The position numbers were made by a program, and so were the translations under genes. A stretch of 64,000 nucleotides of DNA from Psammoneis japonica. Taxonomy: Eukaryota. Of the stretch, positions 1,274 through 34,298 are shown in pieces. Location of the stretch: NCBI GenBank assembly GCA_008632985.1, contig QPGO01000181.1:62001-126000 (forward strand), in the 5' to 3' direction. Position 1 is the first letter of the stretch; every line of letters starts with the position of its first letter. The notes below the pieces were generated by a model. That model was not told the DNA's origin. It did no database searches and worked only from the letters and a program-made list of their open reading frames with translations.

Positions 1274-1518
1274 TGACAGAATTTGAACAAGATTTTAGTT
1301 TATCACACATGATTATGTGTGCTCTTAGTTCCGCGCGTGTCACGAGATGTAGTTTGCTTTCGAGCCACACGGCTCACAAGAACAATGACAGTAGTGCCGA
1401 CATCACGACACCAGTCTTTCAGCTCCTGCAATGGTCTCTGCACGGAGACTCATCTGCCATTTAGACAGCAGCAAGGAGTTGTTGTTTTCTTCCACCCAGT
1501 CATCTTCATTTTCTGTCA
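1274..1518 (+). repeat. 5' LTR of Copia B1
   Basis: Aligns to 12690-12934 with ~15 substitutions; TG...CA termini. Confidence 0.95.
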
Positions 1519-2310
1519 GATTAACAGTCTTGCTCTTTATTGTCCATTGAGCGTTCATCATCGTCATCGAGAAATTTTCGACGATGCGCACCGTTGGCGG
1601 TGGAAGTACATGTCTACCTTCTTCACTGCTGGATGCTGGATTAAATCTACACATTTGGATTTATCCAACACCTCCCATCATTGCATGTGTTTGTTCAACG
1701 GACATTTGTTTGGTCAGGAATTCCCGAATTCTCAGAAATCTGAGATTCCGGATTCCCCGCAGCAGATTCTGCCCTGGTTGGCAGACAGACCAATCCATCT
1801 GCTCGTGCTCATGTGCGCACGACATGAGCCCTTGACTCTGGCCCTGCTTCGCACATGCCAAGTCCACCACCTTGCATCTGCACCGGATTGCTGGTCTTCT
1901 GCAGTCCTGCAAGGTCCACGAACATTGGGGCAAGGGCACAGTTCCCGCGTTTGTTCGTCCCTCCACAGTGCCAAATTTGGCCGGCCTGATCGGGTCATCC
2001 AACCAACACAAAATGAGAACGGTTCGGAGGTCTTGTCCACCTCCAGCTGGCTTGTCAGCAGGGGTTTTTAACCCATTGCTCCACTCTCAAGCAACCCAAA
2101 TTGTCACCAGCTGCGGGTTCGGACGTGCCGGTACAACTCTGCGGACCGGATGGGAAGCTTGGCACTTAACTATGAACAGGACATCACAGCCCGGCGGCTT
2201 CTGACTCTTGAGATAGTCCAAGACATCAAGTCAAGATTCAAGTCAAGTTTCAAGTTATTACAAGCTCACCCTCCAACTCTAGCTAGTTCCGACATCCACC
2301 TAGTTGCAAC

Positions 2311-3435
2311 ATGGTTCTCACCAGGCAACAACAAATCGATGGCCTCGAGCACATTCTAGGCACTGTTCTGAATCAAGCCTCAGACAGTCCATTGCGCTCT
2401 GCTCTCAACATTGATGGAACCGATTTGCACCAAGACCTTTTCACTTTTACTCCGATGCAATTGGATGCCCTTGTGTACAACGACGGAACCAATCAAATGC
2501 CTTTGCCACGTGGTTACAAAGCACAGATGGCTGCATTGATTAACCTGTACACAGTAAAAGCGCGTGGTTGCGTGGATGTTAGCAATGACCCTCAATTGTT
2601 CACACGAGAGGAGTTCACCAACCATCGTCTTAGTCCTGAGTGTGCAGCGTCCCTCTCCATGGGCACAGCACCATCTGCTCCCACTCCTGGCTCATTGCCA
2701 CCCAAACCACGTGATCCCGTGCGTGACTTTAAACGAGGCATCAAACGTGACCCACTTGCCTTCGCGCTTCTCAAGTCTGACAAACAGTGGCACACGTGGC
2801 ACACCTCCATCATCGCACAGGCCCGCTCCCAAGACATCGCACGCATTCTTGACCCGACGTACAAGCCCTCTGCAGCTTAGGACAAGGCCCTGTTTGCTGA
2901 ACAACAGAAGTGCATGTTCGCCGCATTCAAACGGATCTTGCAGAAAGACAAAGGCAAGGCTCTTGTTCGTCAACATGTCGGCTCCTCTGATGCTCAAGCG
3001 GTGTATTGTGACCTTTTCCAAGCATGCCCTCACTTCCACTCGCGCATCCCTGGAGTCCTCGACTCTTCTCACATACCTCACCACTGCTCGCCTTGGTGAT
3101 GGCACCTGGAAAGGTTCCACTCATGCCTTCATGCGCCACTGGCAGGACCAGCTCGGCAAGTGTGAAGCTCTTATCCTGGGTGCGGACCATTTTCTGCTGG
3201 CCAGAAACGTGTCATGCTTGAGAACGCCGTACATCCTGTCGAGGAACTCCATTCAGTGAAGAATCAGGCCGATCAGTTCCGCACGCAGAATGGAAAGGGA
3301 CTCTCTTATGAAGAGCACTGTGGACTCCTGCTTTCTGCTGCAGCACAGCACAACAGCACGTTCACCCCCAAGATGGCTCCTCGCACTCCGCGCCGTGCCA
3401 TCTACGAACATCACCTGGTCCCTGACGACCCTGAT
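2311..3435 (+). pseudogene. Gag of Copia B1 (stop at 2878-2880, frameshifts); interrupted by nested element
   Basis: MVLTRQQQ...RDFKRGIKRDP...KQWHTWH homologous to the gag at 4651; reading PDDPD|DDVFFDIDSDVD resumes at 10547. Confidence 0.9.
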
Positions 3436-3711
3436 TGACAGGATTTGAACAGGATTTAGGTGCGCGCGAAGTATCGCGCGCTGTTTAGTTTACCGTGCAC
3501 AGTTTTGTGTGCTTTAGTTCCGCGCGTTCACGCGCGATGTAGTTTGCTTTCGAGCCACAAGGCTCACAAGAATAATAACAGTAGCCCGATTATACCGACT
3601 TACACGTCTTTCGGCTCCTGTGACGGTCTCTGAGCGGAGACTCATCTGCTATTTAGACAGCAGTAAGGAGTTATTGTTTGAATTCTTGCCATTTGCCTTC
3701 AATTTCTGTCA
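3436..3711 (+). repeat. 5' LTR of Copia A1
   Basis: TGACA...TGTCA; 274/276 identical to 3' LTR. Confidence 0.97.
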
Positions 3712-3722
3712 GATTAACAGTC
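3712..3722 (+). promoter_or_regulatory. Primer-binding site GATTAACAGTC (complementary to tRNA-Asn(GUU) anticodon arm)
   Basis: Directly after 5' LTR; identical at 1519-1529 and 62268-62278; reverse complement GACTGTTAATC. Confidence 0.75.
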
Positions 3723-4650
3723 TTGCTCATTGTCAACCCATTGAGCAACCGCCATCGTCGTCGTTGATTTACCAACGACGCTATTTCAATTCTACGTGGA
3801 CCTCCGTATATATCCTACATACATCGGCAAGTCTACGCGCATTCAATACCAGGGCATCGGCAGGAAGTTAACGTCACCGTCAAGTCTCCTTACCGCTGGA
3901 TATCTGGATTGATTATACTACCTTTGATCGCTGAAGACATACATTCAACGGTCATATCCAAGTCTATCCTTGATCCTCATCCCTTGATATACCTATTCAT
4001 CGGTTAACGGTCAAGAACCCTACATATTCAAGGATCTTCGTCGCTGAAGACATATATATATATACATATCTTCACGGCCAAGAACCTGTACCCACTCTTC
4101 GGACTACGGTTTTGCTGCCACTCTACAAGCACACCGAGTCCATTGTACCTGATCTACCCCGGACTACTGGTGCTCTACAGTTCTACTAGGTCCACGAGGA
4201 CGACTGTGAGAGCAAGTAGCCGTGATTACAGTCTACGTTGGGGCGAGGGTGCTTTCCCGCGTTTGTTCGTTCGTCCACAGCGCCTAACGCCTACGTCAAC
4301 TGGCCAGCCTGATCGGGAAATCCAACCGATATAAAATAAGAACGGTTCGGGGGTCTTGTCCACCTCTAGTCAGCTTACCTGCAGGGGTTTACAACCCGCT
4401 ACTCCGCTCGTAAGCAACCCAAAGTGCCACTAGCTGCGGGTTCGGACGTGCCGGCACAACTCTACGGACCGGATAGGAAGTTTAGCACTTAACAACGAAC
4501 GGGATAACAAAGCCCGGCGACTTCTGATTTTAAGATAGTTCAAGATTTCAAGTCAAGTCTGTTTCAAGTCAAGTCTATTCTCACCCAAGTTTCGAGTCTA
4601 CCTTCGCTTCCCAACCAGAATTGATTGTCCTGACACCACTTTTGTCTACC

Positions 4651-7600
4651 ATGGTTCTCACTCGTCAGCAACAAACCGATGGTTTCGAGCACGTGGTTGG
4701 AACCGTGCTTGCCCAAGGTGCTGGGAGTCCTCTTCATTTGGCTTTGGCCCAAGACGGCACGGACTCGCATCAGGAACTATTCACGTTCATACCGTCCCAA
4801 ATCGACTCGCTTGAGTACGACAACGGCACTAATGTAATCCCTTTGCCCCGTGGTTATAAGAACATGTTAGCAGCACTAGTCAGTCTGTACATTGTCAAAG
4901 CACACAAAGGTCTTGACGTTGCCAACGACTCCTCTTTGTTCATGCATGACGAGTTCCTTGCCTACCGCCTCAGCCCCGACTACATGTCTTCTGTGTCCAT
5001 CGGCAGCTCACCCCTTGCACCTCCACATGTCACCAACCCGACCAAGGCACGCGACCCGGTGCGGGACTTCAAGCGAGGCATCAAGCGTGATCCCACCGCT
5101 TTCACGGCTCTCAAATCCGACAAGCAGTGGCACACTTGGCACACCTCACTTGTGGCACAAGCCCGTGCCCAAGACGTCGAGTGCATTCTAGACTCGTCGT
5201 ACAAACCGACCAGCCCCGAAGACAAACTGCTCTTTGCTGAACAGCAAAAGTACATGTTCGCCGTCTTCGAACGCATCCTTCTCACCGACAAGGGCAAGGC
5301 TCTCATTCGCGAAAATGTGGGGTCTTCTGACGCACAGACCGTCTACCGTGCCTTGTCTGAGTACGCGCTTGCCTCCACCCGCGCATCTATCGAGTCCTCC
5401 ACCCTGCTCACGTACCTCACCACCGCGCGTCTTGGTGATGGCACTTGGAAAGGTCCGACCCACGGGTTCATCCTTCATTGGCAAGATCAGTTGCACAAGT
5501 ACGAGGCACTCATCCCGGCCAGTGACCACTTCTCTGAAGGACAGAAGCGCGTCATGCTCGAGAATGCCGTGCACCCTGTCGAGGAACTCCGTGCTGTCAA
5601 GAACCAAGCTGATCAGCATCGTACGCAGAGTGGCAAGAGCCTCACATACGATCAACACTGTGGCTTGCTCCTCTCCGCGGCAGCTCAGTACGACAGCACG
5701 TTTCAACCCAAGACGACACCTCGAGCTCCCCGACGCGCCATATACGCACACGACGTCTACTCCGAGGAACCGTCCGACGATGTGTTCTACGACATTGACA
5801 GCGACGTTGACGTCCTCCAAGCCAATGCTGCCTACACCCGCGGTCCCAGCCTCACCGGTGTCCAATGGAGACGTCTCCCTCCCGACCACCAACGGCTCTG
5901 GGATTCGTTGCCCGATTCCTCCAAGGCGATCATCCTTGAGCATTCTCGTCCACCTCCCCGCAACCCGCGAGCCAGCAACTACCATGAGTCTGTTACGGCC
6001 AACCTTCACGACCAACGCCTTGGGAGTGACGGTGATGTCAACTTGTCCAACACGACTCCTGCTGACTCTGGTGACTCCGCTCCACATGTGGACGCCACTT
6101 CGGATAATCCCATCCTGGCGCACCTCACCAAGCGCAAGCCACTGCCACCCGGTGATCTGCAACGTCTGTTGTCTCCTAACCAAGCCCCCAATGCCAGTCG
6201 ACCGGGGCCATCCGCCGCTTCCTCTACCCCGCCAGCTTCTGCAGATGACATAGAACTTAACGGCCGCACTTGCCGCCGCGTTAACAACCACAATGTCATT
6301 TACTCTGCCTCTGCTCATCGCTCCACACGCACTGGCGCTCTAGTCGATCGTGGGGCCAACGGCGGCATTGCTGGCGACGACGTTCGCGTCATTGCACGCA
6401 CCTCTCGCCAAGTCGACGTTCAGGGCATTGACGATCATCAATTGGTGGACATCCCCATTGTCACCGCTGGTGCCGTTATTGAGACCCAGCGTGGTCCCGT
6501 CATCGCCATCCTCCATCAGTGCGCGTGCACGGGCAAGGGCAAGACCATCCATTCCTGCGGCCAACTCGAATGGTACAACCAGGATGTCAACGATCGCTCT
6601 GTCAAGGTGCCCAACGGCTTGCAACGTATTGCCACTCCTGATGGCTATGTCATCCCCATTGACATCAAGGCTGGCCTGCCCTATGTTGCCATGCGACCTT
6701 ACACTGACGCCGAATGGGACACCCTGCCCCATGTCATCCTCACCGGTGATGACACATGGGACCCTTCCGTCCTCGATCACTCTGTCACTGACGACGACCA
6801 GTGGTACGACGCGATCTCTGACCTACAGGACGATCCCACTGCCAACCTATTTGACGAATACGGCAACTACCGTCATCGTGTCGTTGTCAACGAGACCATC
6901 ATGTCCGCTTCCTTGTCTGCCGATCACGCGTCCGCCCTCGATGATCACCTCATTCCGAACGACGACGTGTTCTACGAGTGTCATCTGCATGCGATTGACC
7001 CCCAGGGCGATGACGTTCCACCTCCGGAGCGCACTGTACAGCCCAAGGACCCCCCCTTCGAGTCTCTTCGGCCTTGCTTTGGCTTCCTACCTGCCGATGC
7101 GGTCCGTCGTACTTTTGACTGCACCACGCAGTGCGCCCGCATGCCCGCCGGCACACACCTTCGCAAGGCCTGCAAATCACCCAACCCCGCCCTTAATGTG
7201 CACCGCCGCAACGAGCCTGTCGCCACTGACACCGTTTGTGCCGACACCCCGGCCGTCGACTCTGGTTGCACCAGCGCCCAACTGTTTGTTGGCACCGAGT
7301 CTACCGTCACTGACGTCTGCGGCACTAAGACGGACAAAGAGTTTGTCAACACACTCGAGGATCAGATCCGTGAACGTGGTGCCCCATCCAAACTCATTAG
7401 CGACCGTGCTCAAGTTGAGATCAGCAACAAAGTGCTCGGGATCCTGCGCGCCCTCTTCATCTCTAGCTGGCAAAGTGAGCCTCACCAGCAACACCAAAAC
7501 TTTGCCGAGCGTCGCTACCAGACCGTGAAGCGCATGGCGAACACTGTCATGGATCGTTTTGGTTCGCCCGCCCACACATGGCTGCTGGCGCTCATGTACG

Positions 7601-10318
7601 TGTGCTTCATACTCAACCATGCAGCGTCCCCACGTCTCCACTGGCGCACGCCCCTCGAGACTCTCACTGGCTCCACCCCGGACATCAGCCCCTTGCTTCG
7701 CTTTCACTGGTGGGAACCCGTGTACTTCCACCTCGATGACTCCGATTGGCCGTCCGAATCCCGTGAGTTGCGTGGACGCTTCGTTGGCATTGCTGAGCAC
7801 GTCGGCCACCAGATGACCTTCAAGATTCTATCTGACGAGACTCAGAAGATCCTCTGCCGGTCCAACGTCCGCTCCGCTACCCCCGATCCTGCCGTTCGAA
7901 ACCTGCGTCTTGATCCTCCTGATGGGGAGCCACCTGAACCCATCATCAAATCTCGCCATGACGACAACCCCGTCGACTCTCCTGATGGGGAGATCAGGAC
8001 ACCCAAGATGCCAGTTTTCGATCCGCAAGACATCATTGGACGTACCTTCCTCATGCAGCCACAAGAGGACGGACAACGCCACAGAGCTCGCATCGTCAAG
8101 GCCGTCGAAGACCACGAATGGAAAGTGAACGGCAATCCCGAGCTCACTAAGTTCGTCTGCTCTGTCAACAATGACGAATACGAGGAAGTCCTTGCCTGCA
8201 ATGACATCATGAATCACATTGAGCAAGAAGACGAAGACACCACTGTTTGGAAATTTCGACGCATCGTGTCACACGAAGGACCTCTGAAGCCTCACGACCC
8301 AACCTGGAAAGGCTCCAGCTACAACATCATGCTTGAATGGGAAAGTGGGGAGATCACGTCCGAGCCTCTTGCCATCATCGCCAAGGACGACCCCGTCACC
8401 TGTGCCATCTATGCACGAGAGAACGGACTCCTCGACACGGATGGCTGGAAGCGGTTCCGCACCATCGCGAGGCGCCAAAAGAAGCTGTTTCGCATGGCCA
8501 ACCAAGCCAAGCTTCGCTCCTTCCGCACTGCACCTCGCTACAAGTGTGGATACGAAGTTCCCCGGAACTGCAAACACGCCATGTCACTAGACGAACGCAA
8601 CGGCAACCGCAAGTGGGGAGACGCAACTAATCTCGAGATGGACCAACTCGACGAATACGAAGTCTTCCATGACTGCGGGCCCTTCAAGTCTTCCACTCCT
8701 CCTGCGGGACACAAGAAGATCCGAGTGCACCTAGTGTGCGACGTGAAACACGACGGTCGCCACAAGGCACGACTCGTAGCCGACGGGCACCTCACGGACG
8801 TACCCATCGACAGTGTCTACTCCGGAGTAGTCTCCCTCCGTGGCCTTCGGCTGATGATTTTCCTGGCCGAACTCAACGAGTTGGAGACATGGGCCACCGA
8901 CATTGGCAATGCCTACCTTGAAGCCACCACCAAGGAGAAGCTTTACATTGTAGCTGGACCCGAGTTCGGCAAACTCGAAGGACACATCCTTGTCATCCAC
9001 AAGGCACTGTATGGACTGCGCAGCTCCGGTCTCCGCTGGAACGAGCGCTTCGCCGACTGCCTGCGAGCTGAAGGCTTCTTCCCCTGCCGCGCCGAACCCG
9101 ACATTTGGATGCGCAGGAACGGCGACCACTATGAATACATTGCCTTTTATGTGGATGACCTCGCCATTGCCATGAAGGACCCTCAATCTTTCGTCGACAC
9201 TCTCACGGAAAAGCACAAGTTCAAGCTCAAGGGTACGGGACCCATTGAGTTCCATCTGGGTTGCGACTTTTCCCGGGAACCCGACGGAACCTTGTGCCTG
9301 TCTCCGCGCAAGTACATCGAGCGCATGGTCGACAGCTGTGCCCGACTGTTTGGGGAGAAACCTACCACCAACGCCCTGTCACCTCTAGAGAAGGGTGACC
9401 ACCCCGAACTGGACACTTCGAACTGCTGGGACCCGATGGCATTCACAATTCCAGTCTCTTGTTGGTTCACTCCAATGGGCAGTGTCCCTTGGTCGAATTG
9501 ACATTGCCACGGCCGTCATGTCACTCTCTAGCTTCCGAGCTGCGCCCCGTCAAGGCCACTTGGATCGTGCCAAACGCGTCTGTGGGTACCTCTCCAAGAT
9601 GCGACACGGTGCTCTCCGCGTTCGCACGGAAGAGCCCGACTGTTCGGATCTCCCTGCTCCGGCCTATGAATGGATGCATTCCGTGTATGGTGAAGCAGAA
9701 GAGATGATCCCGAAGGACGCTCCACCGCCCCTTGGCAAGTTCGTCACTACCACCCACTACGTCGATGCAAACTTGTACCATTGCATGCTCACCGGACGCT
9801 CTGTCATGGGAATGCTCCACTTCCTCAACAAATTCCCGGCTGATTGGTTCTCTAAGAAACAAGCCACCGTGGAGACTGCGACCTACGGGTCTGAATTTGT
9901 TGCCGCAAGGACTTGTGTTGAGCAGATTGTCGACCTGCGCATCACCCTGCGCTACCTTGGCGTCCCGATCCGTAACGTTAGTTACATGTTCGGTGACAAC
10001 AAGTCGGTTGTAGACAGTGCCACCATCCCGCACTCCAAGTTACACAAGCGACACACCGCACTATCGTTCCACCGTGTGCGTGAGGCAATTGCCTCTGGTT
10101 ACCTTGAGTTCCACTTCATCGAAGGCTCCCGCAACCCTGCTGACATTCTCAGCAAGCATTGGGGTTACTCCCAAATCTGGGACCTTCTCCGCCCCCTCAT
10201 GTTCTGGAACTTCATTCCATCCGAAGTCGAATCTGTTTCTGTGGCTCCTCAAGCAAACTGGGGAGTGACAGGATTTGAACAGGATTTAGGTGCGCGCGAA
10301 GTGTCGCGCGCTGTTTAG
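4651..10318 (+). CDS. Copia Gag-Pol polyprotein (Gag, aspartic protease, integrase, chromo-like segment, RT, RNase H); frame broken near 9420-9446
   Basis: ATG at 4651; protease ALVDRGANGG (~6337); integrase core ISDRAQVE / SEPHQQHQNFAE; RT DIGNAYL, KALYGL, YVDD (9148-9159); RNase H YVDAN, ETATYGSEF, FGDN, NPADILSK. Two apparent 1-bp deletions separate ORFs 4621-9501 and 9395-10318. Many expected Tyr read Cys/His. Confidence 0.92.
10255..10265 (+). promoter_or_regulatory. Polypurine tract
   Basis: aaactggggag abutting 3' LTR; same motif precedes LTRs at 12690, 36474, 39462. Confidence 0.8.
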
Positions 10319-10541
10319 TTTACCGTGCACAGTTTTGTGTGCTTTAGTTCCGCGCGTTCACGCGCGATGTAGTTTGCTTTCGAGCCACAAGGCTCACAAG
10401 AACAATAACAGTAGCCCGATTATACCGACTTACACGTCTTTCGGCTCCTGTGACGGTCTCTGAGCGGAGACTCATCTGCTATTTAGACAGCAGTAAGGAG
10501 TTATTGTTTGAATTCTTGCCATTTGCCTTCAATTTCTGTCA
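10266..10541 (+). repeat. 3' LTR of Copia A1
   Basis: Matches 3436-3711; followed by TSD CTGAT. Confidence 0.97.
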
Positions 10542-10546
10542 CTGAT

Positions 10547-12689
10547 GACGATGTATTCTTCGACATCGACAGTGATGTTGACGTCATCCAAGCTCATGCT
10601 GTGCAAACTCATGGCAATTCCCTCACCAAGGAACAATGGCGTCGCATTCCGCCCGGACCATCAGCGCATTTGGGACACCTTGCCCCAGTCCACCAAGGCC
10701 ATCATTCTTGGCTCGCGCACCGCCCACACCGGCAACTGCCATGACTTGACGGCGGTCAACCTGCACGACCTCCGCATTGGCAGCAATGGCGATGTCAACT
10801 TGTCCGCCAACACTCACGATCTTGCGTCAGCCTTCGCACAATCTGACGCCACAGCCGATGCAGCCGACACTAACCCCATTCTGGCTCATCTCACCAGGCG
10901 CAAGCCCCTGCCACCCGGCAACTTGCAATGTCTCCTGGCCCCCTGAACGGCCTCCTTCCACCTGTTCTGGTGAGAAACCGCCTGGATCTGCACCTTCTGT
11001 CCGCTCCGACGCTAAGCCCAATGACATTGACGTCCAAGGTGTCGATGATGATCAACTGGCAGACATTCCCATTGTCACTGCTGGTGGTGTCATCCACACG
11101 CAACGTGGCCCTGCCATTGCCATCCTTCACCAGTGCACCTACACTGAAAAGGGGAAGACAATACACTCTTGCGGCCAGCTCGAGTGGTACAAAGACGAGG
11201 TCAACGATCGGTCCATCAAGGTCCCCGACGGTCTGCAGCACATCACCACTGTTGATGGATGCGTCATTCCCATTGACATTAAAGCCGGCCTCCCGTACAT
11301 CGTCGAGCACGTTGGTCACCAAATGACATTCAAGATTCTTTCTGTTGACACTCAGAAGATTCTCTGCAGTTCCAACATGCGCTTCGCCCGTGATCCGTCT
11401 GCTCCAAACCTGCATCTTGATCCTCCTGATAAGAAATCTGCTGAAACTGTCATTAAATCCCGCCATGACTCCGAGGATTTGCCAGATTCACCAGATGGGG
11501 AGGCGATCAGGATGCCCAAAATGCCGGTCTTTGACCCCGAGGACATCACAGGATGCACCTTCCTCATGAAGCCACAAGAGGATGGACAACGCCACAGAGC
11601 CCGCATCGTCAAAGTCGTTGAGGACTACGACTGGAAAATCGGAGACAATCCTGAACTGGTCAAGTTCATTTGCTCGGTCAACAATGATGAATGCGAGGAA
11701 GTCCTAGCCTGCAATGACATCATGCACCACATTGAGCAAGAAGACGAGGACACCACCCTCTGGAAGTTCCGACGCATCGCATCACACGAAGGACCATTGC
11801 AACCCCATGATCCCTCTTGGAAAGGCTCAAGCTACAACGTCATGCTTGAATGGGAGAATGGGGAGATCACGTCTGAACCCCTTGCCATCATTGCCAAGGA
11901 CAACCCCGTCACCTGTGCTGTCTACGTGCATGAGCACGGCCTTCTAGAAACCGAAGGATGGAGACGCTTTCGCAAGATAGCCCTTCGTCAGAAGAAGCTA
12001 TTCCGCATGGCCAACCAAGCCAAGTTACGCTCCTTTCGTACTGCGCCACGATGCAAGTGCGGGTGTGAAGTGCCATGGGACTACAGGCATGCCATGGCCC
12101 TTGATGAGCGCAACGGCAACCGCAAGTGGGGAGACGCAACGGACCTCGAGATGACTCAGCTTGATGAGTACGAGGTCTTCCACGACTGCGGACACCACAA
12201 TGATTCCAGTGCTCCATCAGGACACAAGAAGATCCGGGTACATCTCATCTATGACGTCAAACATGACGGACGGCACAAAGCAAGGCTTGTTGCCAATGGA
12301 CATCTCACAGACGTGCCCGTCGACAGTGTCTACATTGATCTTCGCATCACTTTACGTTACCTTGGCGTTCCCATTCATGAAACATGTTACATGTTTGGGG
12401 ACAACAAGTCGGTTGTGGACAGTGCTACCATCCCGCACTCCAAGTTACACAAGCGACACACCACCCTCTCATTCCATCGTGTACGTGAGGTGATTGCCTC
12501 CGGTTTCCTCGAGTTTCATTTTATCGAAGGCTCCCGCAACCCGGCTGACATCCTCAGCAAGCATTGGGATCATTGCTCCCAAAGCTGGAACCTCCTTCGT
12601 CCTCTAATGTTTTGGAACTTTGATCACAAGGCTTTCAACCAATCCGACTTTGAATCTATCGCTGTTGACCCCTCAAGCAAACTGGGGAG
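10547..12689 (+). pseudogene. Deleted pol of Copia B1 (lacks protease active site, integrase core and most of RT)
   Basis: Junctions relative to A1: ...KAGLPY|IVEHVGHQ (~11298) and ...VDSVY|IDLRITLRY (~12333). Confidence 0.88.
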
Positions 12690-12934
12690 TGACAGGATTT
12701 GAACAAGATTTTAGTTTATCACACATAATTATGTGTGCTCTTAGTTCCGCGCGCGTCGCGCGATGTAGTTTGCTTTCGAGCCACACGGCTCACAAGAATA
12801 ATGACAGTAGTACCGATATCACGACACCAGTCTTTCGGCTCCTGTAATGGTCTCTGCACGGAGACTCATCAGCTATTTAGACAGCAGTAAGGAGTTATTG
12901 TTTACTTCCACCCAGTCATCTTCATTTTCTGTCA
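12690..12934 (+). repeat. 3' LTR of Copia B1
   Basis: Matches 1274-1518; preceded by PPT, followed by TSD CGTCA. Confidence 0.95.
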
Positions 12935-14770
12935 CGTCATTTGAGCTGACGTTGACATCTGGAATGCCGCCGGCTGGCTTGTCCTTCCCCCAGAGGACAC
13001 TGACGCCGCCTTGCCAGATGCAGAATTGACCTCTTCTTGATCAACAGCACCCTTCGCATCCTCCTTGGGCAACAAGTTTGCAAAGGATGCCAGAGAGTCA
13101 CCGACATCAAAGACACCATCAGAGAGGCTTGCCGCCACATTGGAGAGTGACAAAACATCAAGCAATGAACCGTCATGGTCCAGAGACGTGACAAAGCAAG
13201 CCACGATGCTGGTTTCACATTTGGTGTTATTCTCAAATACATCAGAGCGAGAAGAGAGATGTTGCTTTTGCTTGGGTGTGACTTTGAGGTGGGGCATGAT
13301 CACAATGGTGAGAGAGGCAAACCGCCATGGGCGATCGTGGTGCAAACAGTGGACGTGGAATCCTGCGGACTCTTTGTCACACTGCTTTCATGCTTCTGCA
13401 CTGATTCACCAGAAACACAGGGGATTAGATCTGCAGATCACAAGCAGAAGGGAGAAATGCCCCATGCATGATTGGTCTGGCAAATGGTGCAAACAAGATT
13501 CCTGAGCAGAAAAAGGTGAAAATTTTGCAGAATGATTGACATCTGTCATGAGGACGGAAGTGTAGAACTTTCAACAAAAATGCCACATGCAATGTGAAAA
13601 TGAATGTTTTTGAGTTGGAACAAAATGCAGTTGTTCAGAATTCAGGGAATGATGCAGTCATGTGAGACTTGGCATGTTGGCATTCAAGTCAACAAGTGCA
13701 CATTAAATCACATGCATCTGGGAGCAACAAGTGCAAACTGCACCAGTCAGGATGGTAGAAAAAAATAAAAATGTTGCACTCCCAACAAGCAAATGTCAAT
13801 TTCAATCTGGAGGGGGTCAACAAACATTGGCGAAGGTGCGCACAACATGAGATGGTGGAGTTCAATGACCTGTCACTCATGGCCCTTTCCATGGGTCTCT
13901 GATGTTGGGCTCTTGGGGCAAGGGAGAAAGAACCAAAATGGCCAAGCACTGGAGACTTCAAATGTCAAAGAGGAAATTTCCAAAGCAATTGAGGGATTGT
14001 GGACTTGTGCATGAAGCTGAGCTGTTGTTGAAAATGGCAAGAGCTTGTGATTGCCCAACCAGATGTGAAAAGGCAACAGGACAAATGCCAGAGGCAGGAG
14101 TTACCGACTGCCGGCATGAGGGACAATCTAACAGACATCTGGGACAGATGACAATCGTGCACTAGATGAGAAAGAAAGTGAGCAAAGGAGAGATCATCGG
14201 ATCTCTCCATGCTGTCCATGCCAGTCTGTCTGACACAAGGGAGTGTGCTCCCTGTCTTGGATGTCTGTCACCCTCCCCTGATGAGCAATGCAATGCTCAT
14301 CAAGAAAGAAAGAGACGATCCGAGTGTAAAGAGAGGAGACCAGAATGGCAGAAACAAAGAAAAGGAACCAAAAGAAAAAATGCAATGCACATCAAGAAAA
14401 AAAAAAGACAATCCGAACATAAAGAGAGAACCAAAATGGCAGAAACAAAGAAAAGAAACCAAAAGAAATGACCAAGACTTGGTCCGCAAACATGACAACA
14501 ATCAATGACAACATCCCATCAAGTGATGAGCATGTCGGGAATGAAGCACCCAACCTGCAGTCAGTGCATTGGTCTTCAACAAAAAATGTCAAAGGCAGTT
14601 CCCAACAAATTTTTTGGAGAAATTGAGTTGTGCACCAAAGAACACTTTCGTCAATCCCCATGAACAATCACCCGCAATGGGACATTCTGGCGAGTCATGC
14701 CATTGCCAAAACTCATCCCAAGAGATGGGGCCAAAAAAATGGAAATCCACCATGGCAGATGACACGGTGA
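12935..14770. repeat. Segmental duplication copy 1 (partner 39707-41543)
   Basis: ~1.84 kb, roughly 13 differences; identical ORF translations in the track (e.g. MHHDRPWRF..., MGNKFAKD...). Confidence 0.95.
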
Positions 14771-22650: not shown

Positions 22651-22654
22651 ACTT

Positions 22655-25397
22655 TGCAGGGGTCAACAGCGATGGATTTGAGGTCAGATGGGTTGAAAGC
22701 CTTGGGATCGAAGTTCCAAAACATCAGAGGATGAAGGAGGTTCCAGATTTGGGAGTAACCCCAATGCTTGCTGAGGATGTCAGCTGGGTTGCAGGCACTT
22801 TTGATGAAATGAAACTCAAGGAAACCGGAGGCAATCGCCTCATGTGCATGATGGAATGAGAGGGCGGTGTGTCGCTTGTGTAACTTGGAGTGCGTGATGG
22901 TGGCACTGTCCACAACAAACTTGTTGTCCCCAAACATGTAACATGTTTCACGAATGGGGACGCCAAGGTGACGTAAAGTGATGTGCAGACTGTCAATGGG
23001 TGCCTCTGTGAGGTGTCCATCAGCAACAAGTTGCTTCTTGTGCCATCCATCATGTTTGACATCGCAGATGAGATGCACCCCAATCTTCTTGTGTCCTGCT
23101 TGGGCACTGGAGTCCTTGCAGTGTCCACAGTCACAGAGACCCTTGCACTCACCTAGCTGAGTCATCTTGAGGTCTGTTGCGTCTCCCCACTTGTGGTTGC
23201 TGTTGCGTTCATCAAGGGCCAAGGCATGCTTGCAGTGCCAGGGCACTTTGTACCCATGCTTGCATCATGGTGCAGCATGAAAGGAGCGCAACTTGGCTTG
23301 ATTGGCCATGCGGAATAGCTTCTTCTGGCGCAGCGCTACAGTCCGGAAGCATTTCCAGCCATCAGTCTCAAGCAAACCGTGCTCGCATGTGCAAATGGCA
23401 CAGGTGATGGGATCATCCTTGTCAATGATGGCAAGGGGTTCAGACGTGATCTCCCCATTCTCCCATTCAAGCATGATGTTGTAGCTTGAGCCTTTCCAAG
23501 TGGGATCATGAGGTTGCAATGGTCCTTCATGCAATGAGATGCATCAGAACTTCCAAATGAACTTGACTGGTTTGGGGTTGTCTCTGATTTTCCAGTCATG
23601 TTCTTCAATGGCTTTGATGATGCGGGGGCTCTGTGGCATTGTCCATCCTCTTGTGGCTTCATGAGGAAGGTGCGTCCAATGACATCCTTGGGGTCAAAGA
23701 CAGGCATTTTGTGAATCCTGATCCCCTCCCCATCTGGTGAATCCGGGGAGTCCTGGGAGTCATGTCAGGATTTAATGACGGGTTCAGCAGATTCTGCATC
23801 AGGAGGGTCAAGACGCAGGGTTTGGGGTGGACGGATCATGGGCAGAACGCACCTTTGAGTGGCAGAGAATCTTCTGAGTGTCGTCAGAGTGAGAGGATCT
23901 TGAACATCATCTGATGAATGACGTGTTCGGCAATGCCAATGAAGCGACCATGCAACTCGCGGGATTCGGACGGCCAGTCGGAATCATCAAGGTGGCAGTG
24001 CACGGGTTCCCACCATTGAATGCGAAGGAGTGGACTGACATTGGGCAAGAGAAGATGCTGCAGGTCACTGGGTGGCAGAGGCTTGCACTTCGTGACATTT
24101 GCCAGGATGAGGTTGTTGTCCATTTTGTCATGTGCATCAGCAGGTGGTGCAGTGGTTGAGGCAAGATCATGAGTGTTGGTGCACAAATCGACGTCGCCAT
24201 CACTTCCAAGATAGAGGTCATGGAGGCTGACAGCTTCCGACTTGTGGCAGTTGCTGGAACAGGGGGTGTGCGATCCAAGGATGGAGGCCTTGGCAAACTG
24301 CAGCAGGCTGTCCCAAATGCGCTGGTGGTCTGGCGAAATGTGGCACCACTGTTCCCCGGTGAGAGAAGAACTGTGGGACTGACAATGTCGAAGAATGCAT
24401 CATCATCAGGGTCGTCGGGAGCCAGGTCATGTTTGTAGATGGCATGGCGTGGGGGGCGTGGAGCCGTCTTGGGGGTGAACGTGCTGTTGCACTGTGCGGC
24501 TGCTGAAAGCAGGAGCCCACAGTGCTGTTCATGTGAAAGACCCGTGCCGTTGATCAATCTGATTCTTGACAGATCGGAGTTCTTCAACAGGATGAACAGC
24601 ATTCTCAAGCATGATGCATTTCTGGCCATCAGAGAAGTGGTCTGTGCCCTTGACAAGAGCTTCGTGCCTGCAAAACTGGTCTCCTGCCAGTGAAGTGTGA
24701 AGGCATGGGTGGATCCTTTCCAGGTGCCATCACCAAGGTGAGCAGTGGTGAGGCACTTGAGAATCGTCGAGGACTCCAGGGATGCGCGAGTGGATGCAAG
24801 GGCACACTTGGACAGGTCACAATACACTGCTTGAGCATCAGAGGAGCTGACATGTTCATGAACAAGTGCCTTGCCTTTGTCATTCTGCAAGATGCATTCG
24901 AATGTGGCAAACATGTGCTTCTGTTGTTCATCGAACAGGGCCTTGTCCTAAGCTGTAGAGGGCTGGCATGTTGGATCGAGAATGCGGTCGACATCCTGGG
25001 AGCGGGCCTGTGCGACGACAGAGGTGTGCCACGTGTGCCACTGTTTGTCAGACTTGAGAGTCGTGAAGGTGAGTGGATCACGTTTGATTCCTCATTTAAA
25101 GCAAAGCACAGGGTCACATGGTTTTGGTGGCAACAAGCCAGGAGTGGGAGCAGATGGCACTGTGCCCATGGAGAGGGACACTGCATGCTTGGGACTGAGA
25201 TGACAGTCAGTGCACTCTGCACGTGTGAACAAGTGGGGGTCATTGCCAACATTGGCGGCGCCACACGATTTTACCATGTGCAGACTAATCAGCACAGCTG
25301 TCTGTGCTTTGTAGCCACGTGGCAAGGGCATTTGATTGGTGCTGTCATTGAACTTGAATCTTGACTTGAATCTTGACTTGAAGTCTTGAACCATCTT
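22655..25397 (-). mobile_element. Multiply deleted Copia subfamily B copy (B3), no LTRs visible
   Basis: Minus-strand homology to leader repeat, gag, WWEP, EWENGEITSEPL, HLICDVKHDG and RNase H. Confidence 0.88.
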
Positions 25398-29836: not shown

Positions 29837-30906
29837 CCAGTCCTGACACCCACCTAGTTGCAACATGGTTCTGACCAGGCAGCAACAAATCAATGGCCTC
29901 AAGCACATTCTGGGCACTGTTCTGAATCAAGCCGCAGACAGTCCATTGCACTCTGCCCTCAGCATTGATGGCACTGACTCACACCAGGATCTCTTCACTT
30001 TTACTCCGACCCAACTGGATGCCCAAGTTTACAATGACAGCACCAATCAAATGCCCTTGACACGTGGCTACAAAGTGCAGACAGCTGCACTGATTAGTCT
30101 GTACATGGTAAAAGCACGCGGCGGCACCGATGTCAGCAATGACCCCGACTTGTTCACACTTGAGGAGCACACTGACTGTCATCTTGGTCCCAAGCACACA
30201 GCGTCCCTCTCCATGGGTGCAGCACCATCTGCTCCCACTCCTGGCTTGTTGCCACCAAAACCACATGACCCCGTGCATGACTTTAAAAGAGGCATCAAAC
30301 GTGATCCACTTGCCTTCACGACTCTCAAGTCTGACAAACAGTGGCACACATGGCACACCTCTGTCGTGGCACAGGCCCACCATCAGGACATCAGCCACAT
30401 TCCTCTCGATCCAACGTACAAGCCCTCTACAGCTGAGGACAAGGTCCTGTTTGATGAACAACAGAAGCACATTTTTGCCATCTTTGAACGCATCTTACAG
30501 AATGACAAAGGCAAGGCACTTGTTCGTGAACATGTCGGCTCTTCTCTGATGCTCAAGCAGTGTGTCGTGACCTGTCCAAGTGTGCCCTTGCATCTGCTCG
30601 TGCACCCCTGGAGTCCTTGACCCTTCTCACGTACCTCACCACTGCTCGCCTTGGTGATGGCACCTGCAAAGGCTCCACCCATGCCTTCACACTTCACTGG
30701 CAGGACCAGCTTTGCAAGTGTGAAGCCCTTGTTCCAAGTGCGGACCACTTCTCTGCTGGCTAGAAATGCGTCATGCTTGAGAATGCCATTCATCCTGCCA
30801 AAGAACTTTGTTCAGTAAAGAATCAAGCCCACCAGTTTTGCATGCAGAATGGCAGAGGCCTTTCACACGAACAATGCTGTGGGCTCCTGCTTTCTGCAGC
30901 GGCACA

Positions 30907-32227
30907 CAATTCTGCCTTTGTTTCATCTCCACACCCTCTACGTGTTTTTCTACGTAAGCTCTGGTGCAGATGTCGCCTTTTTCTGATGGTGTGATGATGG
31001 TTCTTACCTGCCTGTTCAGACGTGTTCTTTTATCAACATGCCATTGTTCTGTGATCATCGGCAATTTCATGCAGTGGAAAATGAATTGCATCAAGCTCTC
31101 GTGGCTCATTTGCTCAACGTTCTTCTCGGCATTTTTTGTTGTCATGTGCAAAGTTTCTACAAAGGTCTCAGCACAAATTCTATGTGTTGTGCAAGTCATT
31201 TCAGATGGACGACTCGTCAAACTGCTGATTGCTCTCTTTCCATGCCTCTCAAGTGTCAACGACCCCCCTTCTCTCCACTGTCTGTTCAAGTTTCCTGCGT
31301 CATGTGGTGAACATTTTCCTGTCATTGCTGTTTTCAGAAGTTTGAAGAAAAGACCAATTCTGTGCATGTTGGCAATCCTTCTGCATGCCGACAAGTCTGC
31401 ACAAGTTTCAGTAAAAATTCTATGTGTCATGGAAATGTTTTCAAATGGCTGATCTCCTAATCTCTCGACTGCTCTCTGTCCACACCTGGCAAGCTCCAAA
31501 GACTCCCCCTTCACCTGCTGTCCTTTTAAGTTCTCTGCTTTATGTGGTGAACACCCTTCCATCCTTGCTGCTGCCAGAAGTGTGAATTCGAGATCAACTT
31601 GGCTTGATTTGGTTTTTCGCCTGTTTGCCAATGCTTCCTGCCAAGTTCCTACGCAAGACTCAGCACAAGTTCTACGTGTCATGAAAACATTTTCTGATGG
31701 CCTGTCTCCTGATCATCCCATGGCTCTCTATCCACACCTGCCAAGCTCCAATGACCCCCCCTTTCCTCAATGCCTTTTTAAGTTCTCTGCTCTATGTGAT
31801 GAACTCCCTTTTGTTGTTGCTGCTGCCAGAAGTTTGATTGTGAGACCAACTCGGTGGTTGGTGATGTTTTGGTCCTTGGTTGTGACATTTACAGTGTTTG
31901 CTCTGTTTCAGATCCTTTCTTGCTTTGGAATGTTCCAAGATGGCTTGCTTCAGTGGAATGATCAGATCCAGTCACAAGAAACAAGCCATTCCATTGCTGT
32001 GGTTTCAAGTGCTTTGAAGGTGACAAATCAATTTGCTGTTGCTGTTCACAACACCATTCCCAACTGTTCCCAGCAGGCATCATTGTTTGTCAGTGACACC
32101 CATCCAGGCCAATCGCAATACATTCCTGCCGCACCATTGGTGCACTGGGGGTGTGGGTTGGCTTGTTGCCTGAGTTGCAGGGTGGAAGCATGGCAGCACT
32201 TTAAGCACAGAATTTTGGTTTTGTTTG
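30907..32227. mobile_element. Unclassified 1.32-kb insertion with 16-bp TSD (non-LTR-type signature)
   Basis: tttctgcagcggcaca duplicated at 30891-30906 and 32228-32243; internal ~255-bp tandem units; T-rich right end. Confidence 0.7.
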
Positions 32228-33480
32228 TTTCTGCAGCGGCACAGCATGACAGTGTGTTCACCCCCAAGATGGCTCCAAGTGCTCCACGCCATGCCATCTG
32301 CCAACATGACCTGGCTCCCAACGACCCTGATGATGACGCATTCTTTGATGTCGACAGTGATGTTGACATCATTCAAGCCTGCACTGCACAGACTTGCAGC
32401 ACCTCCCTCACCAAGGAACAATGGCGTCGCATTCCGCCAGACCACCAGCGCATCTGGGACACCTTGCCTCAGTCCACCAAGGCCATCATCCTTGGTTTGC
32501 GCACTGCCCACACCAGCAACTGTCATGAATCAACCGCAGTCAACCTGCACAACCTCCATCTTGGCAGCGACGGCAATGTCAACTTGTCCGCCAGCACCCA
32601 TGATCTTGCGTCAGCCCCTGAACCACCTGATGCTGCGGCCAACTCAGCAGGTGCTAACCCCATCCTGGCTCATCTCACCAGGCACAAGCCTTTGCCACCT
32701 CGCGACTTGCAATGTCTCCTGGCACCTGAACGGCCTCCTGCTGCCCGCTCTGGCAAGAAACCCCCCAGATCTGTGCCTCCCAATGGATCCACATCTTTCT
32801 GCAACACCGATGCTGACATTGAGATCAACGGTCACAAATGCCATTGTGTCAACAATCACAATGTTGTCTGCTCTGCATCGACCCAAAACTTGACTCACAA
32901 GGGTGCTCTCGTGGATCGCAGTGCAAACTGTGGTGTCGCCAGTGATGATGTTTGTGCTGTTGCCTGCACTGATCATCAGGTCGACGTCCAAGGTGTTGAC
33001 AACCATCAGCTTGTCGACATTCCTGTTGTCACTGCCGGCAGTGTCATCCACACACAATGCGGACCTGCCATTGCCATTCTTCACCAGCATGCCTGCAATG
33101 GAAAAGGGAAGACTGTGCACTCTTGTGGTCAACTGGAGTGGTGCAAGCACGACTTCAACGATTGGTCCATCAAGGTCCCCAATGGTCTGCAGTGCATCAC
33201 CACCATTGATGGATGCGTCATTCCCATTAACATCAAAGGCGGCCTTCCGTACATTGCCATGCGTCCACACACTGATGCCAAATGGGACACCCTGCCACAT
33301 GTCGTCCTCACTGGTGATGACACTTGGGACCCATCTGTCCTTGGCCACCAGTTCACCAACGATGAGATGTGGCATGATGCCATGTCTGACCTCCAAGATG
33401 ACCCAACTGCCAACCTCTTTGATGAGTTCAGCAACTGTCATCACCCTCATGTCATCAACAATGCCATGCTTACAGACTCC

Positions 33481-34298
33481 ATCCTTGATGACCACCTGCT
33501 CCCGATGTCTCATTTCTTCTACGAATGCCACAAGCGCAAGATCAATCCCAAGGACCCTGTTTTTGAGTTGCTGCACCCTCATTTTGGCTTTCTCCCAAAG
33601 GACACTGTTTGCCGCACTTTTGATTGCCTGACACAGTGTGCCCACATGCCTGCCAACACACACTTGAAAAAGGTGCACAAGTTGCCTAACTTGGCTCTCA
33701 CAATGTCAACCGCCACAATGACCCCATTGCCACTGACACGGTGCACTCTGACACCCCTGCCTTTGACTCTGGCTGCATCAATGCACAGCTCTTTGTCAGC
33801 ATGGAATCTCTTGTCATGGACATGTGCAGAACCAAAACTGACAAGGAATTTGTCAACACGCTCGAAAACAACATCCATGATCGTGGTGCATCCTTGATGA
33901 CCACCTGCTCCCAACGTCCGATTTTTTCTACGAAAGCCATGAGCGCAAGATCAATCCAAAGGATCCAGACTTTGAGTCTCTGCGCCCTCATTTTGGCTTC
34001 CTTCCAAAGGACACCATCTGCCACACTTTTGATTGCATGATGCAATGTGCTGGCATGCCCACCAGGATGCACTTGGAAAAGGCGTGCAAGTCGCCCAACC
34101 TGGCTCTCAACGTCCACCAACACAACGAACCCGTTGCCACCAACATGGTGTGCTCTGACACCCCTGCTGTTGTCTCTGGCTGCACCAGCACCCAGCTCTT
34201 TGTTGGCACTGAATCCCTTGTCATGGATGCATGCAGAACCATGACCAACAAGGAATTCATCAACATGCTTGAGAACAACATTCACAATCGTGGTGCCC
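33481..34298. repeat. 409-bp tandem duplication within B2 integrase
   Basis: 'atccttgatgaccacctgctccc' at 33481 and 33890; both units encode DTPA.DSGC...TDKEF.N.LEN. Confidence 0.88.

Follow-up and report, generated by a model that had tools for sequence, protein, structure and literature searches.

Patchy loss of TpA, accompanied by loss of CpG, in LTR retrotransposons and other repeats of the diatom Psammoneis japonica

Do the differences between the two LTRs of a single retrotransposon insertion in Psammoneis japonica record a mutational process that acts on chromosomal DNA after integration, and is that process directed at TpA? We analysed a window of 64,000 nucleotides (contig QPGO01000181.1, positions 62,001 to 126,000, forward strand), in which an element here called A1 is nested within another, B1. 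Both are Ty1/copia-type LTR retrotransposons, as shown by their TG...CA LTRs and target-site duplications and, in A1, by an RVT_2 domain; A1 is the young element, inserted in its older relative. The empty-site form of A1, with position 3430 joined to 10542, occurs in two contigs (run X1). The features of the two elements are as follows.

3436-3711, + strand: A1 5' LTR, 276 bp, TG...CA, with TA retained at the variable sites 3473 and 3573
10266-10541, + strand: A1 3' LTR, 276 bp, with TG at 10303 and CA at 10403
3431-3435 and 10542-10546: A1 target-site duplication CTGAT, 5 bp
4534-9501, + strand: A1 gag-pol open frame, 1655 aa, with RVT_2 at residues 1390-1601
9389-10318, + strand: remainder of A1 pol, in another frame
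1274-1518, + strand: B1 5' LTR, 245 bp, the mutated twin, which has lost 8 TA and 3 CG and has 3-4 further changes
12690-12934, + strand: B1 3' LTR, 245 bp, the spared twin, with TA O/E 0.85 and CG O/E 1.10
1269-1273 and 12935-12939: B1 target-site duplication CGTCA

RVT_2 (PF07727, E = 1.2e-28) is the only Pfam match in the A1 frame at E <= 0.01. No integrase model matched upstream of it, where copia gene order would place one; the region aligns over its full length with relatives. These number 1530 at E <= 1e-20, with top identities of 54-66%.

The A1 LTRs align without gaps and differ at 2 of 276 sites, 3473 A against 10303 G (TA vs TG) and 3573 T against 10403 C (TA vs CA), while all 20 CG in each LTR are intact. 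An earlier note on this DNA, made from sequence alone, had reported the same two sites and about 20 unchanged CpGs and had read the pair as TA erosion. That reading holds at 3573/10403, where outgroups polarise the change as TA to CA, but not at 3473/10303: all three other A-family LTRs have TG, so that by parsimony 3473 is a change from TG to TA in the A1 5' LTR. The polarity of this site is ambiguous and looks like a gain of TA. For a random substitution, the probability of being a transition that makes or breaks a TA is 0.08-0.16, giving p = 0.006-0.025 for two in succession; by itself the A1 pair is thin evidence for TA targeting and too small to carry the argument.

The B1 LTRs differ at 15 of 245 sites, comprising eight TA-class differences (three TG, five CA), three CG-class differences (CG against TG or CA), three transversions and one other transition, which reproduces the original tally of about 15 (8 TA, 3 CG and 4 other). 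The 3' LTR retains the TA or CG at 11 of 11 TA- and CG-class sites, a split of 11:0 (two-sided binomial p = 0.001), so that all 11 are derived in the 5' LTR, as had been claimed. Given this split and the single target duplication common to both LTRs, the proposal that the changes in the B1 5' LTR postdate integration is supported.

Further copies in the window allow the same comparison to be made elsewhere.

12333-14770, + strand: first copy of a duplicated block, comprising the last 602 bp of B1 and 1836 bp of flank
39108-41543, + strand: B2 copy of the block, a duplicate of 12333-14770
61990-64000, + strand: A2, a second A-family element, truncated by the window end
52504-52679: B-family solo LTR

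The two copies of the block differ at 51 positions in the element part and at 12 in the flank. Dense differences run up to 12903, shortly before the LTR ends (12934), and the next one is at 13544. In its element part the B2 copy has lost 15 of 26 TA and 14 of 32 CG, and in its flank 1 of 12 TA and 1 of 36 CG; TA losses are split 16:1 between the two copies. The 3' LTRs of B1 and B2 (B1_3 and B2_3) are unlike at 12 of 17 TA, 5 of 14 CG and 1 of 183 other sites. These counts support change of the B2 copy after the duplication. A2 has likewise lost more than A1 (TA 30 vs 6; CG 27 vs 12), its TA losses being clustered (runs test p = 0.019) with CG losses in the same bins. Where A1 has TA, A2 has TG or CA at 15 of 23 sites; where A1 has TG or CA, A2 has TA at 2 of 146. 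The one-copy splits in B1 (11:0), the duplicated block (16:1) and A1/A2 (30:6) show that the action is irregular and not constitutive.

For B1, the alternative is that the 3' end (12333-12934) was renewed from an unmutated member of the family, by ectopic gene conversion or recombination, in which case the B1 pair and the duplicated block would overstate post-integration change. The block differences do stop where homology ends, at the LTR end, and the B1 3' segment starts at the junction of an internal deletion (12330/12333), B2 and A1 being about 1.1 kb longer at this point. A transversion at 12871 is common to B1_3 and the solo LTR, and divergence outside TA and CG is 10/475 in the element part against 5/1738 in the flank, with nine of these differences in the internal 357 bp and one in the LTR, unlike a clean single burst. 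We nevertheless consider conversion unlikely. At TA sites changed in both B1_5 (the B1 5' LTR) and B2_3, the two agree at four and disagree (TG vs CA) at three, as for independent hits; four TA and three CG losses in B1_5 are missing from B2_3; and the A2 losses are clustered in the same way along a single copy.

We then compared rates across site classes. In same-locus pairs, 28 of 70 TA sites and 29 of 126 CG sites are changed (p = 0.014), as against 21 of 3226 nt at other positions, so that TA-class changes number 28 per 140 nt compared with 21 per 3226 nt outside TA and CG sites (Fisher p = 3e-27). Four LTR comparisons, which partly overlap, reuse two LTRs and are non-independent, give 29 of 65 TA lost against 10 of 67 CG (p = 0.0002). 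Per site, TA loss is about 1.5-3.5 times as fast as CG loss and 20-30 times as fast as change at other bases. The earlier idea that TpA erodes before CpG thus stands as a difference in speed but not as an order of events, since CG is co-lost and catches up: old copies retain 14-20% of TA and of CG alike, and the copies and tracts that lose TA lose CG as well, not strictly later.

TA-class differences make up 10 of 17 in the A1 and B1 LTR pairs, compared with 10 of 80 in eight LTR-like pairs of related elements on other contigs, each of which may join different copies (p = 0.0001). On this comparison with eight outside pairs, specificity of the TA-class excess to this genome is supported. The outside set leaves out eight terminal matches (100% identity, 103-127 bp) and the long duplications L012 and L048 (100% and 99.98%), all of which look like assembly overlaps, as well as four partial L034 matches. 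The predicted inflation of LTR dating is borne out, at 2.9-fold for the B1 pair and 13-fold for B1_3 vs B2_3; because hits occur in patches and on a single copy, LTR-divergence ages here are inflated 3-13 fold and do not behave as a clock.

The direction of change is from TA to TG or CA. Seven LTR alignment columns contain TA, TG and CA together, two contain CG, TG and CA, and none mixes TA and CG; these three-state columns, the replacement of Tyr by Cys or His described below and the TA O/E of old repeats relative to a spared gene island support this polarity. A RIP-like process in reverse, making TA by C->T at CpA/TpG in the TA-rich copies, could be entertained insofar as pairwise differences alone carry no direction and 3473 looks like TG->TA. 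We give it practically no chance, in view of the three-state columns, of Tyr being the outside consensus where copies have Cys or His, and of TA being poorest in the oldest DNA of the window; the outgroup tests refute it.

Both strands are affected. TG and CA products are split 4:6 in the LTR pairs and 57:64 in aligned copies at A1 TA sites, which supports the earlier contention of a DNA-level process as opposed to one-strand RNA editing; a pattern confined to one strand was not seen among the aligned copies. A reading by transcription strand, suggested by a tally of 40 Cys to 19 His, was dropped, as that tally is inflated by shared ancestry and the count over all phases is the 57:64 just given. 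Contigs of one sample compared with the region (run X1) show A>G at 122 places, T>C at 85, C>T at 50 and G>A at 44, and 23 of the 40 listed variable places (of 338) fall at a TA of the window; the four sequencing runs are contigs of this one sample, probably the assembly source, and are not independent of the region. The extended context of changed TA sites showed nothing clear: C follows the A in 56% of mutated and 44% of unmutated sites (p = 0.18), and the base preceding T gives p = 0.046. The tRNA-like T-A-C preference that we take to be expected of a TadA-type enzyme is therefore not demonstrated.

The composition of the window separates repeats from a host gene island.

47501-51500, - strand: spared island with host gene, TA O/E 0.37-1.09, CG O/E 0.68-1.25
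49457-49987, - strand: KN/TALE homeobox frame, in the island
47825-48673, - strand: RING finger frame, in the island

Taxonomic leads for the homeobox frame were Oomycota and Bacillariophyta, while most entries for pol had no recorded taxon. TA and CG O/E shift in step, within 500 bp, near 47500 and 51500, dropping to 0.1-0.2, and TA O/E on either side of the island is 0.03-0.23. Old repeats have TA O/E of 0.05-0.12 with CA/TG up to 1.6-2.0, and similar TA values are found in the flanks 1-1273 and 12935-14770 (0.10-0.12) and in 2-kb windows over a tandem array (0.11-0.12). The process is confined to repeats, and the neighbouring gene island is spared. Most genomes and coding sequences are short of TpA, and the host gene (TA O/E 0.60) and the A1 gag-pol frame (0.40) are moderately TA-poor, as a genome-wide context bias in mutation or selection against TpA, acting irrespective of repeats, would have it. 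Such a bias is nonetheless very improbable as the explanation: non-coding DNA next to the host gene is at 0.8-1.1 and the untranslated leader of A1 at 1.16, adjoining repeats fall to 0.03-0.16 across sharp borders, and twins at different places split 11:0 and 16:1.

Tyrosine codons in the element frames preserve an older layer of the same signature. A1, described in the earlier note as CpG-rich with many Tyr-to-Cys changes, indeed has a gag-pol CG O/E of 0.98 and carries Cys or His at 11 of 46 Tyr columns (8 Cys to 3 His), a share that ranks second among 121 proteins (median of the 120 relatives 1.9%). Of the motifs then named, HQCAC (residue 663, Tyr in 39 of 39 relatives), VLACN (residue 1222, Tyr in 40 of 40) and TTQCA (consensus TTQYA) are such changes, but HLVCD is not, its consensus residue being Phe. 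At 35 columns with Tyr in at least 80% of 40 outside relatives, Y/C/H counts are 24/6/2 in A1 and 5/18/7 (of 35) in the B2/A3 zone; over the 19 columns covered in each, they are 7/5/4 in B1 and 2/5/5 in B3. Other copies have the alternative residue at four of eight changed A1 positions (375, 663, 1338, 1393). B1 carries the identical residue at all five of the changed A1 positions that it covers, so the A1 changes were inherited from the common A/B ancestor and, contrary to the first interpretation, did not arise after integration.

This inheritance, from an ancestor that was still transposing, bears on whether the genomic RNA or cDNA of the element was edited before integration (ADAR/ADAT-like A-to-I with a 5' U preference), with no mutation of the chromosome. 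The A1 scars lean to the sense strand (8:3), and A>G exceeds T>C in the sample contigs (122 vs 85). Editing of this kind is highly unlikely to account for the pattern as a whole. The LTRs of a single insertion differ by such changes, the aligned copies are even between strands, the duplicated block diverged by TA-class changes after its duplication, and TA-poor DNA extends beyond LTR-element transcripts into the flanks and tandem array; moreover, the Cys:His counts reflect common descent, not a series of independent events. The inherited Tyr changes may leave room for a minor contribution from RNA editing.

The reading that we prefer, with a probability of roughly 0.75 for its signature, direction, action after insertion and duplication, two-strand symmetry, patchiness and restriction to repeats, is that repeat DNA would undergo chromosomal, two-stranded, TpA-directed A:T->G:C hypermutation, turning TA into TG or CA. 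Loss of CpG to TpG/CpA would accompany it in the same copies and stretches, in patches between a few hundred bases and a few kilobases long, such that one LTR or duplicate loses at least half of its TA and its twin keeps all. Changes of TA to TG or CA create no stop codon from any sense codon (0, all 5-mers tried), so mutated copies retain long open frames and a partly hit A/B ancestor could remain mobile; it would have gone on transposing and handed down its Tyr->Cys/His scars.

A process of this type has already been described once, in the unrelated alga Bigelowiella natans, to which the present case would add a second group. In that study, 230 of 231 mutations in mutation-accumulation lines were A->G or T->C, all of them located at TpA within two integrated viral regions, and an ADAT2-type deaminase was argued by homology (Mettrop et al., bioRxiv 10.64898/2026.01.13.699255). 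The resemblances are TpA->TpG/CpA on both strands (there in giant-virus and virophage inserts), restriction to foreign or repeat DNA with normal neighbours, uneven action (between lines there, between copies here) and a lasting trace of TA-poor, CA+TG-rich clusters. TA-poor genes of B. natans are also enriched in reverse-transcriptase and DDE domains, and LTR retrotransposons are the elements hit here. The differences are that B. natans is a rhizarian alga and the present host a stramenopile; that mutation was measured directly there and is deduced from LTR pairs and duplicates here; that the targets there, viral inserts spanning 25-186 kb, have TA O/E of about 0.45, whereas here they are retrotransposons and nearly all repeats, at 0.05-0.12; and that no CpG component is reported for B. 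natans, whereas here CG is lost in the same copies and tracts.

As to chemistry, adenine deamination in DNA by a candidate TadA/ADAT2-type deaminase, recruited to silenced repeats, is plausible at somewhat less than even odds. Amphioxus BjADAT2/3 deaminate both A and C in DNA, although the sites reported as preferred in E. coli DNA are TCG, GAA and hairpin loops, not TpA (PMC10354150); DNA activity of trypanosome ADAT2 is cited in Mettrop et al. (10.64898/2026.01.13.699255). Deamination of A and C by the ADAT2/ADAT3 family would give A->G and C->T, both of which are seen here. The CG loss could come from the same machinery or from decay of 5-methylcytosine in the same silenced chromatin; as hypermutation in B. 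natans had no CpG component, it may also be an unrelated process.

The damage could instead start on the other base of the pair, a modified thymine at TpA (5-hydroxymethyl- or 5-formyluracil) mispairing with G to give T->C. Oxidised thymines are able to mispair, and as TpA is self-complementary, A->G cannot be told from T->C on the opposite strand, so the 57:64 split fits either base. We regard this thymine route as improbable, the sole described precedent favouring, by homology only, an ADAT2-type deaminase.

A more specific version of the deaminase reading, which we hold to be a doubtful but real candidate, has one repeat-directed machinery, guided by homology or small RNAs, write short tracts that would contain both A->G at TpA and C->T at CpG and would end where recognisable transposon sequence ends. 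Such a machinery would be to a diatom what RIP is to fungi, with a dual deaminase chemistry. In Neurospora and other ascomycetes, RIP changes C to T mainly at CpA, raises TpA and creates stop codons. The process here shares with RIP an inactivating, DNA-level transition hypermutation of repeated and mobile DNA that leaves a dinucleotide skew; unlike RIP, it runs from A:T to G:C, strips TpA and can make no stops. Two further kinds of context-specific transition, the decay of CpG in methylated transposons and the APOBEC/ADAR scars of vertebrate LTR elements, likewise raise LTR divergence and label retroelements as silenced or restricted. They concern CpG, or one strand of cDNA or RNA before integration, whereas the TA-class changes here are two-stranded and chromosomal. 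Full-text literature searches gave no paper on TpA-directed mutation in diatoms among the matches listed; the one 'TpA' match, from work on diatom chromatin (PMC4504042), proved to be the word Tpase.

A mutator of DNA that rids mobile elements of TpA would amount to a form of genome defence with chemistry opposite to that of RIP, and its occurrence in a second, unrelated and ecologically dominant group, at much greater depth, suggests wide spread among protists. Long open frames in repeats are here no sign of intact or young elements. Were the dual-chemistry version true, open frames and LTR identity would both be unreliable as markers of youth, and transposon lineages would survive hits and bear scars, like the A/B ancestor. 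Given a full genome, LTR pairs and recent duplicates provide an internal clock for TA, CG and background rates. Tyr->Cys/His scars combined with TA depletion offer a way of recognising hit copies in genomes and metagenomes; of 78 related environmental loci, two show these marks.

The window is repeat-rich eukaryotic DNA, with overall observed/expected ratios (O/E) of 0.23 for TA, 0.49 for CG, 1.58 for CA and 1.61 for TG. It contains the following elements and host frames:

1274-12934: B1, older relative enclosing A1, 245-bp LTRs, target duplication CGTCA
3436-10541: A1, young LTR element, two 276-bp LTRs with TG...CA ends, 5-bp target duplication CTGAT
47825-48673, minus strand: weak RING finger frame (E 3e-5 to 6e-3 for several RING models, mostly short of their cut-offs)
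49457-49987, minus strand: KN/TALE homeobox frame, in the spared gene island (47501-51500)

We reproduced the LTR differences listed in the earlier note. The A1 LTRs differ at 2/276 positions, 3473/10303 (TA vs TG) and 3573/10403 (TA vs CA), with 20/20 CpGs intact. Those of B1 differ at 15/245: eight TA vs TG/CA changes (TA-class), three CG vs TG/CA changes (CG-class), three transversions and one other transition, and the changed state lies in the 5' LTR at all 11 TA- or CG-class sites. When same-locus pairs were pooled (two LTR pairs, the duplicated block in two parts and one inverted duplicate), 28 of 70 available TA sites had changed, 29 of 126 CG sites and 21 of 3226 other nucleotides. Counted per nucleotide (28 changes over 140 nt against 21 over 3226), the TA-class rate is ~30 times background (p = 3e-27). 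As an outside control, eight LTR-like pairs of termini were taken from related elements of other metagenome contigs; TA-class changes made up 10 of their 80 differences, compared with 10 of 17 here (p = 0.0001).

Pairwise differences give no direction, so direction was tested against outgroups in three ways. In an alignment of nine A/B-family LTR copies, seven columns hold TA, TG and CA together and two hold CG, TG and CA; a single change leads from TA, or from CG, to either TG or CA, but two are needed between TG and CA. At 35 columns where 80% or more of 40 outside relatives have Tyr, this residue gives way step by step to Cys (TGY) and His (CAY) across the copies, from 24 Y, 6 C and 2 H in A1, through 7 Y, 5 C and 4 H of 19 in B1, to 2 Y, 5 C and 5 H of 19 in the copy B3 and 5 Y, 18 C and 7 H of 35 in the B2/A3 zone. 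The flux between A1 and the A-family element A2 (61990-64000) is one-way: TA in A1 is TG or CA in A2 at 15/23 sites, whereas TG or CA in A1 is TA in A2 at 2/146. For the B1 LTR changes, 10 of 11 have outgroup or three-state support for the derived state in the 5' LTR; at the exception, 12727, the only other copy aligned without gaps (the B2 3' LTR) likewise has TG. Same-sample contigs differ from the region most often by A>G, at 122 places, and by T>C, at 85, compared with 50 and 44 for the reverse C>T and G>A, and 23 of 40 variable places shown fall at a TA of the window. TA O/E in old repeat DNA is 0.05-0.12.

The change is at the DNA level and on two strands, as had been proposed, with 4 TG to 6 CA in LTR pairs and 57 TG to 64 CA in aligned copies; one-strand RNA editing is therefore not the main source. 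The process is chromosomal, two-strand, TA-specific, A:T->G:C and linked to repeats. Within block 12333-14770 and its copy at 39108-41543 (B2), 51 differences fall in 599 aligned element columns and 12 in the 1836-bp flank; those of the element stop just inside the LTR end (last at 12903, next at 13544). In the B2 copy 15/26 TA and 14/32 CG sites are gone from the element part, compared with 1/12 and 1/36 from the flank (p = 0.005 for TA and 5e-5 for CG). Around the spared island, TA depletion and CG depletion both break off sharply at ~47.5 and ~51.5 kb; the non-coding DNA of the island has a TA O/E of 0.8-1.1.

The claim that TpA erodes before CpG holds in that TA runs ahead of CG, not as strict precedence: the two losses go together.

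TA and CG sites changed in five comparisons
A1 LTR pair: TA 2/16, CG 0/20
A1 vs A2 LTR: TA 7/17, CG 2/21
B1 LTR pair: TA 8/15, CG 3/12
B1 vs B2 3' LTRs: TA 12/17, CG 5/14
A2 coding part: TA 15/23, CG 24/59

Pooling the four LTR comparisons, which overlap because two LTRs are reused, gave TA 29/65 vs CG 10/67 (p = 0.0002). Older copies retain 11-16% of TA and 14-20% of CG, and in the oldest DNA O/E is 0.05 for TA and 0.03 for CG. Outside the window, the 2766-bp locus L069 has three TA left over its whole length (TA O/E 0.02, CG O/E 0.44); its low TA with remaining CG fits TA going first. At 18 conserved Tyr positions L069 has 1 Tyr, 8 His, 4 Cys and 5 Phe; L056 (2759 bp, TA O/E 0.31) has 10 Tyr, 6 Cys, 4 His and 1 Arg at 21. 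Of the 78 related copia loci, all on other metagenome contigs, these two bear the scars; the remaining 76 have a median TA O/E of 0.68.

Losses are unevenly shared between twin copies: 11:0 in the B1 LTRs, TA 16:1 and CG 15:6 in the duplicated block, and TA 30:6 and CG 27:12 for A1 vs A2. The losses form clusters along A2 (p = 0.019, runs test), where TA and CG losses share 250-bp bins. For B1, an unlikely alternative to such patchy hits is that ectopic conversion by an unmutated copy refreshed its 3' end. The spared 3' end starts at an internal deletion junction and has one transversion in common with another B-family LTR, B1 and B2 show nine non-TA/CG differences in 357 internal bases vs one in the LTR, and conversion could explain why block differences end where homology ends. 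On the other hand, TA sites changed in both the B1 5' LTR and the B2 3' LTR agree at four and disagree at three, as with independent hits, the B1 5' LTR retains private losses, and the clustering in A2 lies within a single copy. B1 lacks ~1.1 kb at 12330/12333 that B2 (37994-39108) and A1 have; B1/B2 likeness jumps there from 85% on the left to 97% on the right, so both loci are mosaics and not simple duplicates.

Patchy mutation also bears on dating. LTR divergence is inflated, as had been anticipated, 2.9-fold for B1 (6.1%, but 2.1% when TA/CG sites are excluded) and 13-fold between the B1 and B2 3' LTRs, and because hits occur in patches it is no clock at all here. TA->TG/CA change yields no stop codon (0 cases, all 5-mers), which explains the 814-aa open frame at 31453-33897 (+), in copia remnant DNA with a TA O/E of 0.08, and the survival of a hit mobile lineage. 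In this DNA an open frame says little about whether a copy is intact.

The signature agrees with that of the TpA hypermutation of integrated viral DNA in mutation-accumulation lines of Bigelowiella natans (bioRxiv 10.64898/2026.01.13.699255). The present case differs in host group, in its targets, which comprise LTR retrotransposons and almost the whole of the repeat DNA, in the depth of depletion and in the CG loss that accompanies TA loss. None of the literature matches listed described TpA-directed mutation in diatoms. The window contributes polarity tests, inherited scars of an active lineage, a TA:CG rate ratio and the finding that TA and CG are lost in the same places, as well as the outside control and the conversion caveat.

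The mechanism would plausibly be a TadA/ADAT2-type enzyme that deaminates adenine in DNA. Such an enzyme was proposed for B. natans by Mettrop et al. from homology alone (bioRxiv 10.64898/2026.01.13.699255). Amphioxus ADAT2/3 can deaminate A and C in DNA, and such double activity would account for joint TA and CG loss, but the sites reported for it are TCG and GAA (PMC10354150). We looked for extended context around hit TA sites and found none beyond TA. Since TpA is self-complementary, a thymine-modification route could have acted instead of adenine deamination. Alternatively, the CG loss may come from the usual decay of 5-methylcytosine in the silenced chromatin where TA is lost; diatom transposons are known to be methylated. 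CpG decay is uneven with respect to element orientation (CG->TG 269 vs CG->CA 151, summed over copies 1519-3435, 10542-12689, 22654-25358, 29865-34435, 36755-38597 and 63083-64000 aligned to window 4534-9498), and the skew holds in the minus-strand copy B3 (61 vs 40); third-codon-position selection during the active phase could be its cause.

Taken alone, the A1 LTR pair is weak evidence. Its differences had been read as TA erosion, which stands at 3573: three other A-family LTRs and the B1 3' LTR have TA there, so the A1 3' LTR changed TA->CA. At 3473, where 3/3 other A-family LTRs have TG, TA in the A1 5' LTR is by parsimony the derived state. The A1 Tyr-to-Cys excess is real, with Cys or His at 11/46 Tyr columns, which ranks A1 second among 121 proteins (median 1.9%), and an ordinary 6.4% change at other conserved columns. 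As a set of post-integration events it fails, because B1 has the A1 residue at 5/5 covered positions (375, 663, 1222, 1338 and 1393). Other copies have His where A1 has Cys (663, 1338) and Cys where A1 has His (375, 1393), so the family was ancestrally Tyr at these positions. The common A/B ancestor was therefore hit at these Tyr codons, remained mobile and transmitted the changes. One example named as Tyr-to-Cys, HLVCD, was mistaken, the consensus residue there being Phe. Among 120 relatives, only P0102, a full-length public-database protein, resembles A1 in its Cys/His excess (14/53 Tyr columns); it is probably another hit-but-open copy.

The A1 gag-pol frame spans 1655 aa and includes a reverse transcriptase of the copia type (RVT_2, E = 1.2e-28), and the final part of pol lies in a different frame, the change falling within 9389-9501. 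In same-sample contigs, many of the other copies have an additional base following 9418 or 9448. Although its LTRs are nearly identical, A1 is therefore probably frameshifted and non-autonomous. Two same-sample contigs run from 3430 directly to 10542, as expected of a locus lacking A1. Elsewhere, a 42-bp tandem array of at least 11 units (34974-35603) has an inverted duplicate on either side (34612-35283 and 35726-36397, 98.8% identity), and A-family LTR pieces (34438-34605 and 36474-36749) flank the region 34612-36397. The closest atlas clusters to the KN-type homeobox frame are in Oomycota and Bacillariophyta, a lead that points to a stramenopile, probably a diatom, as the host. The homeobox and RING frames (47825-49987) may be exons of one host gene.
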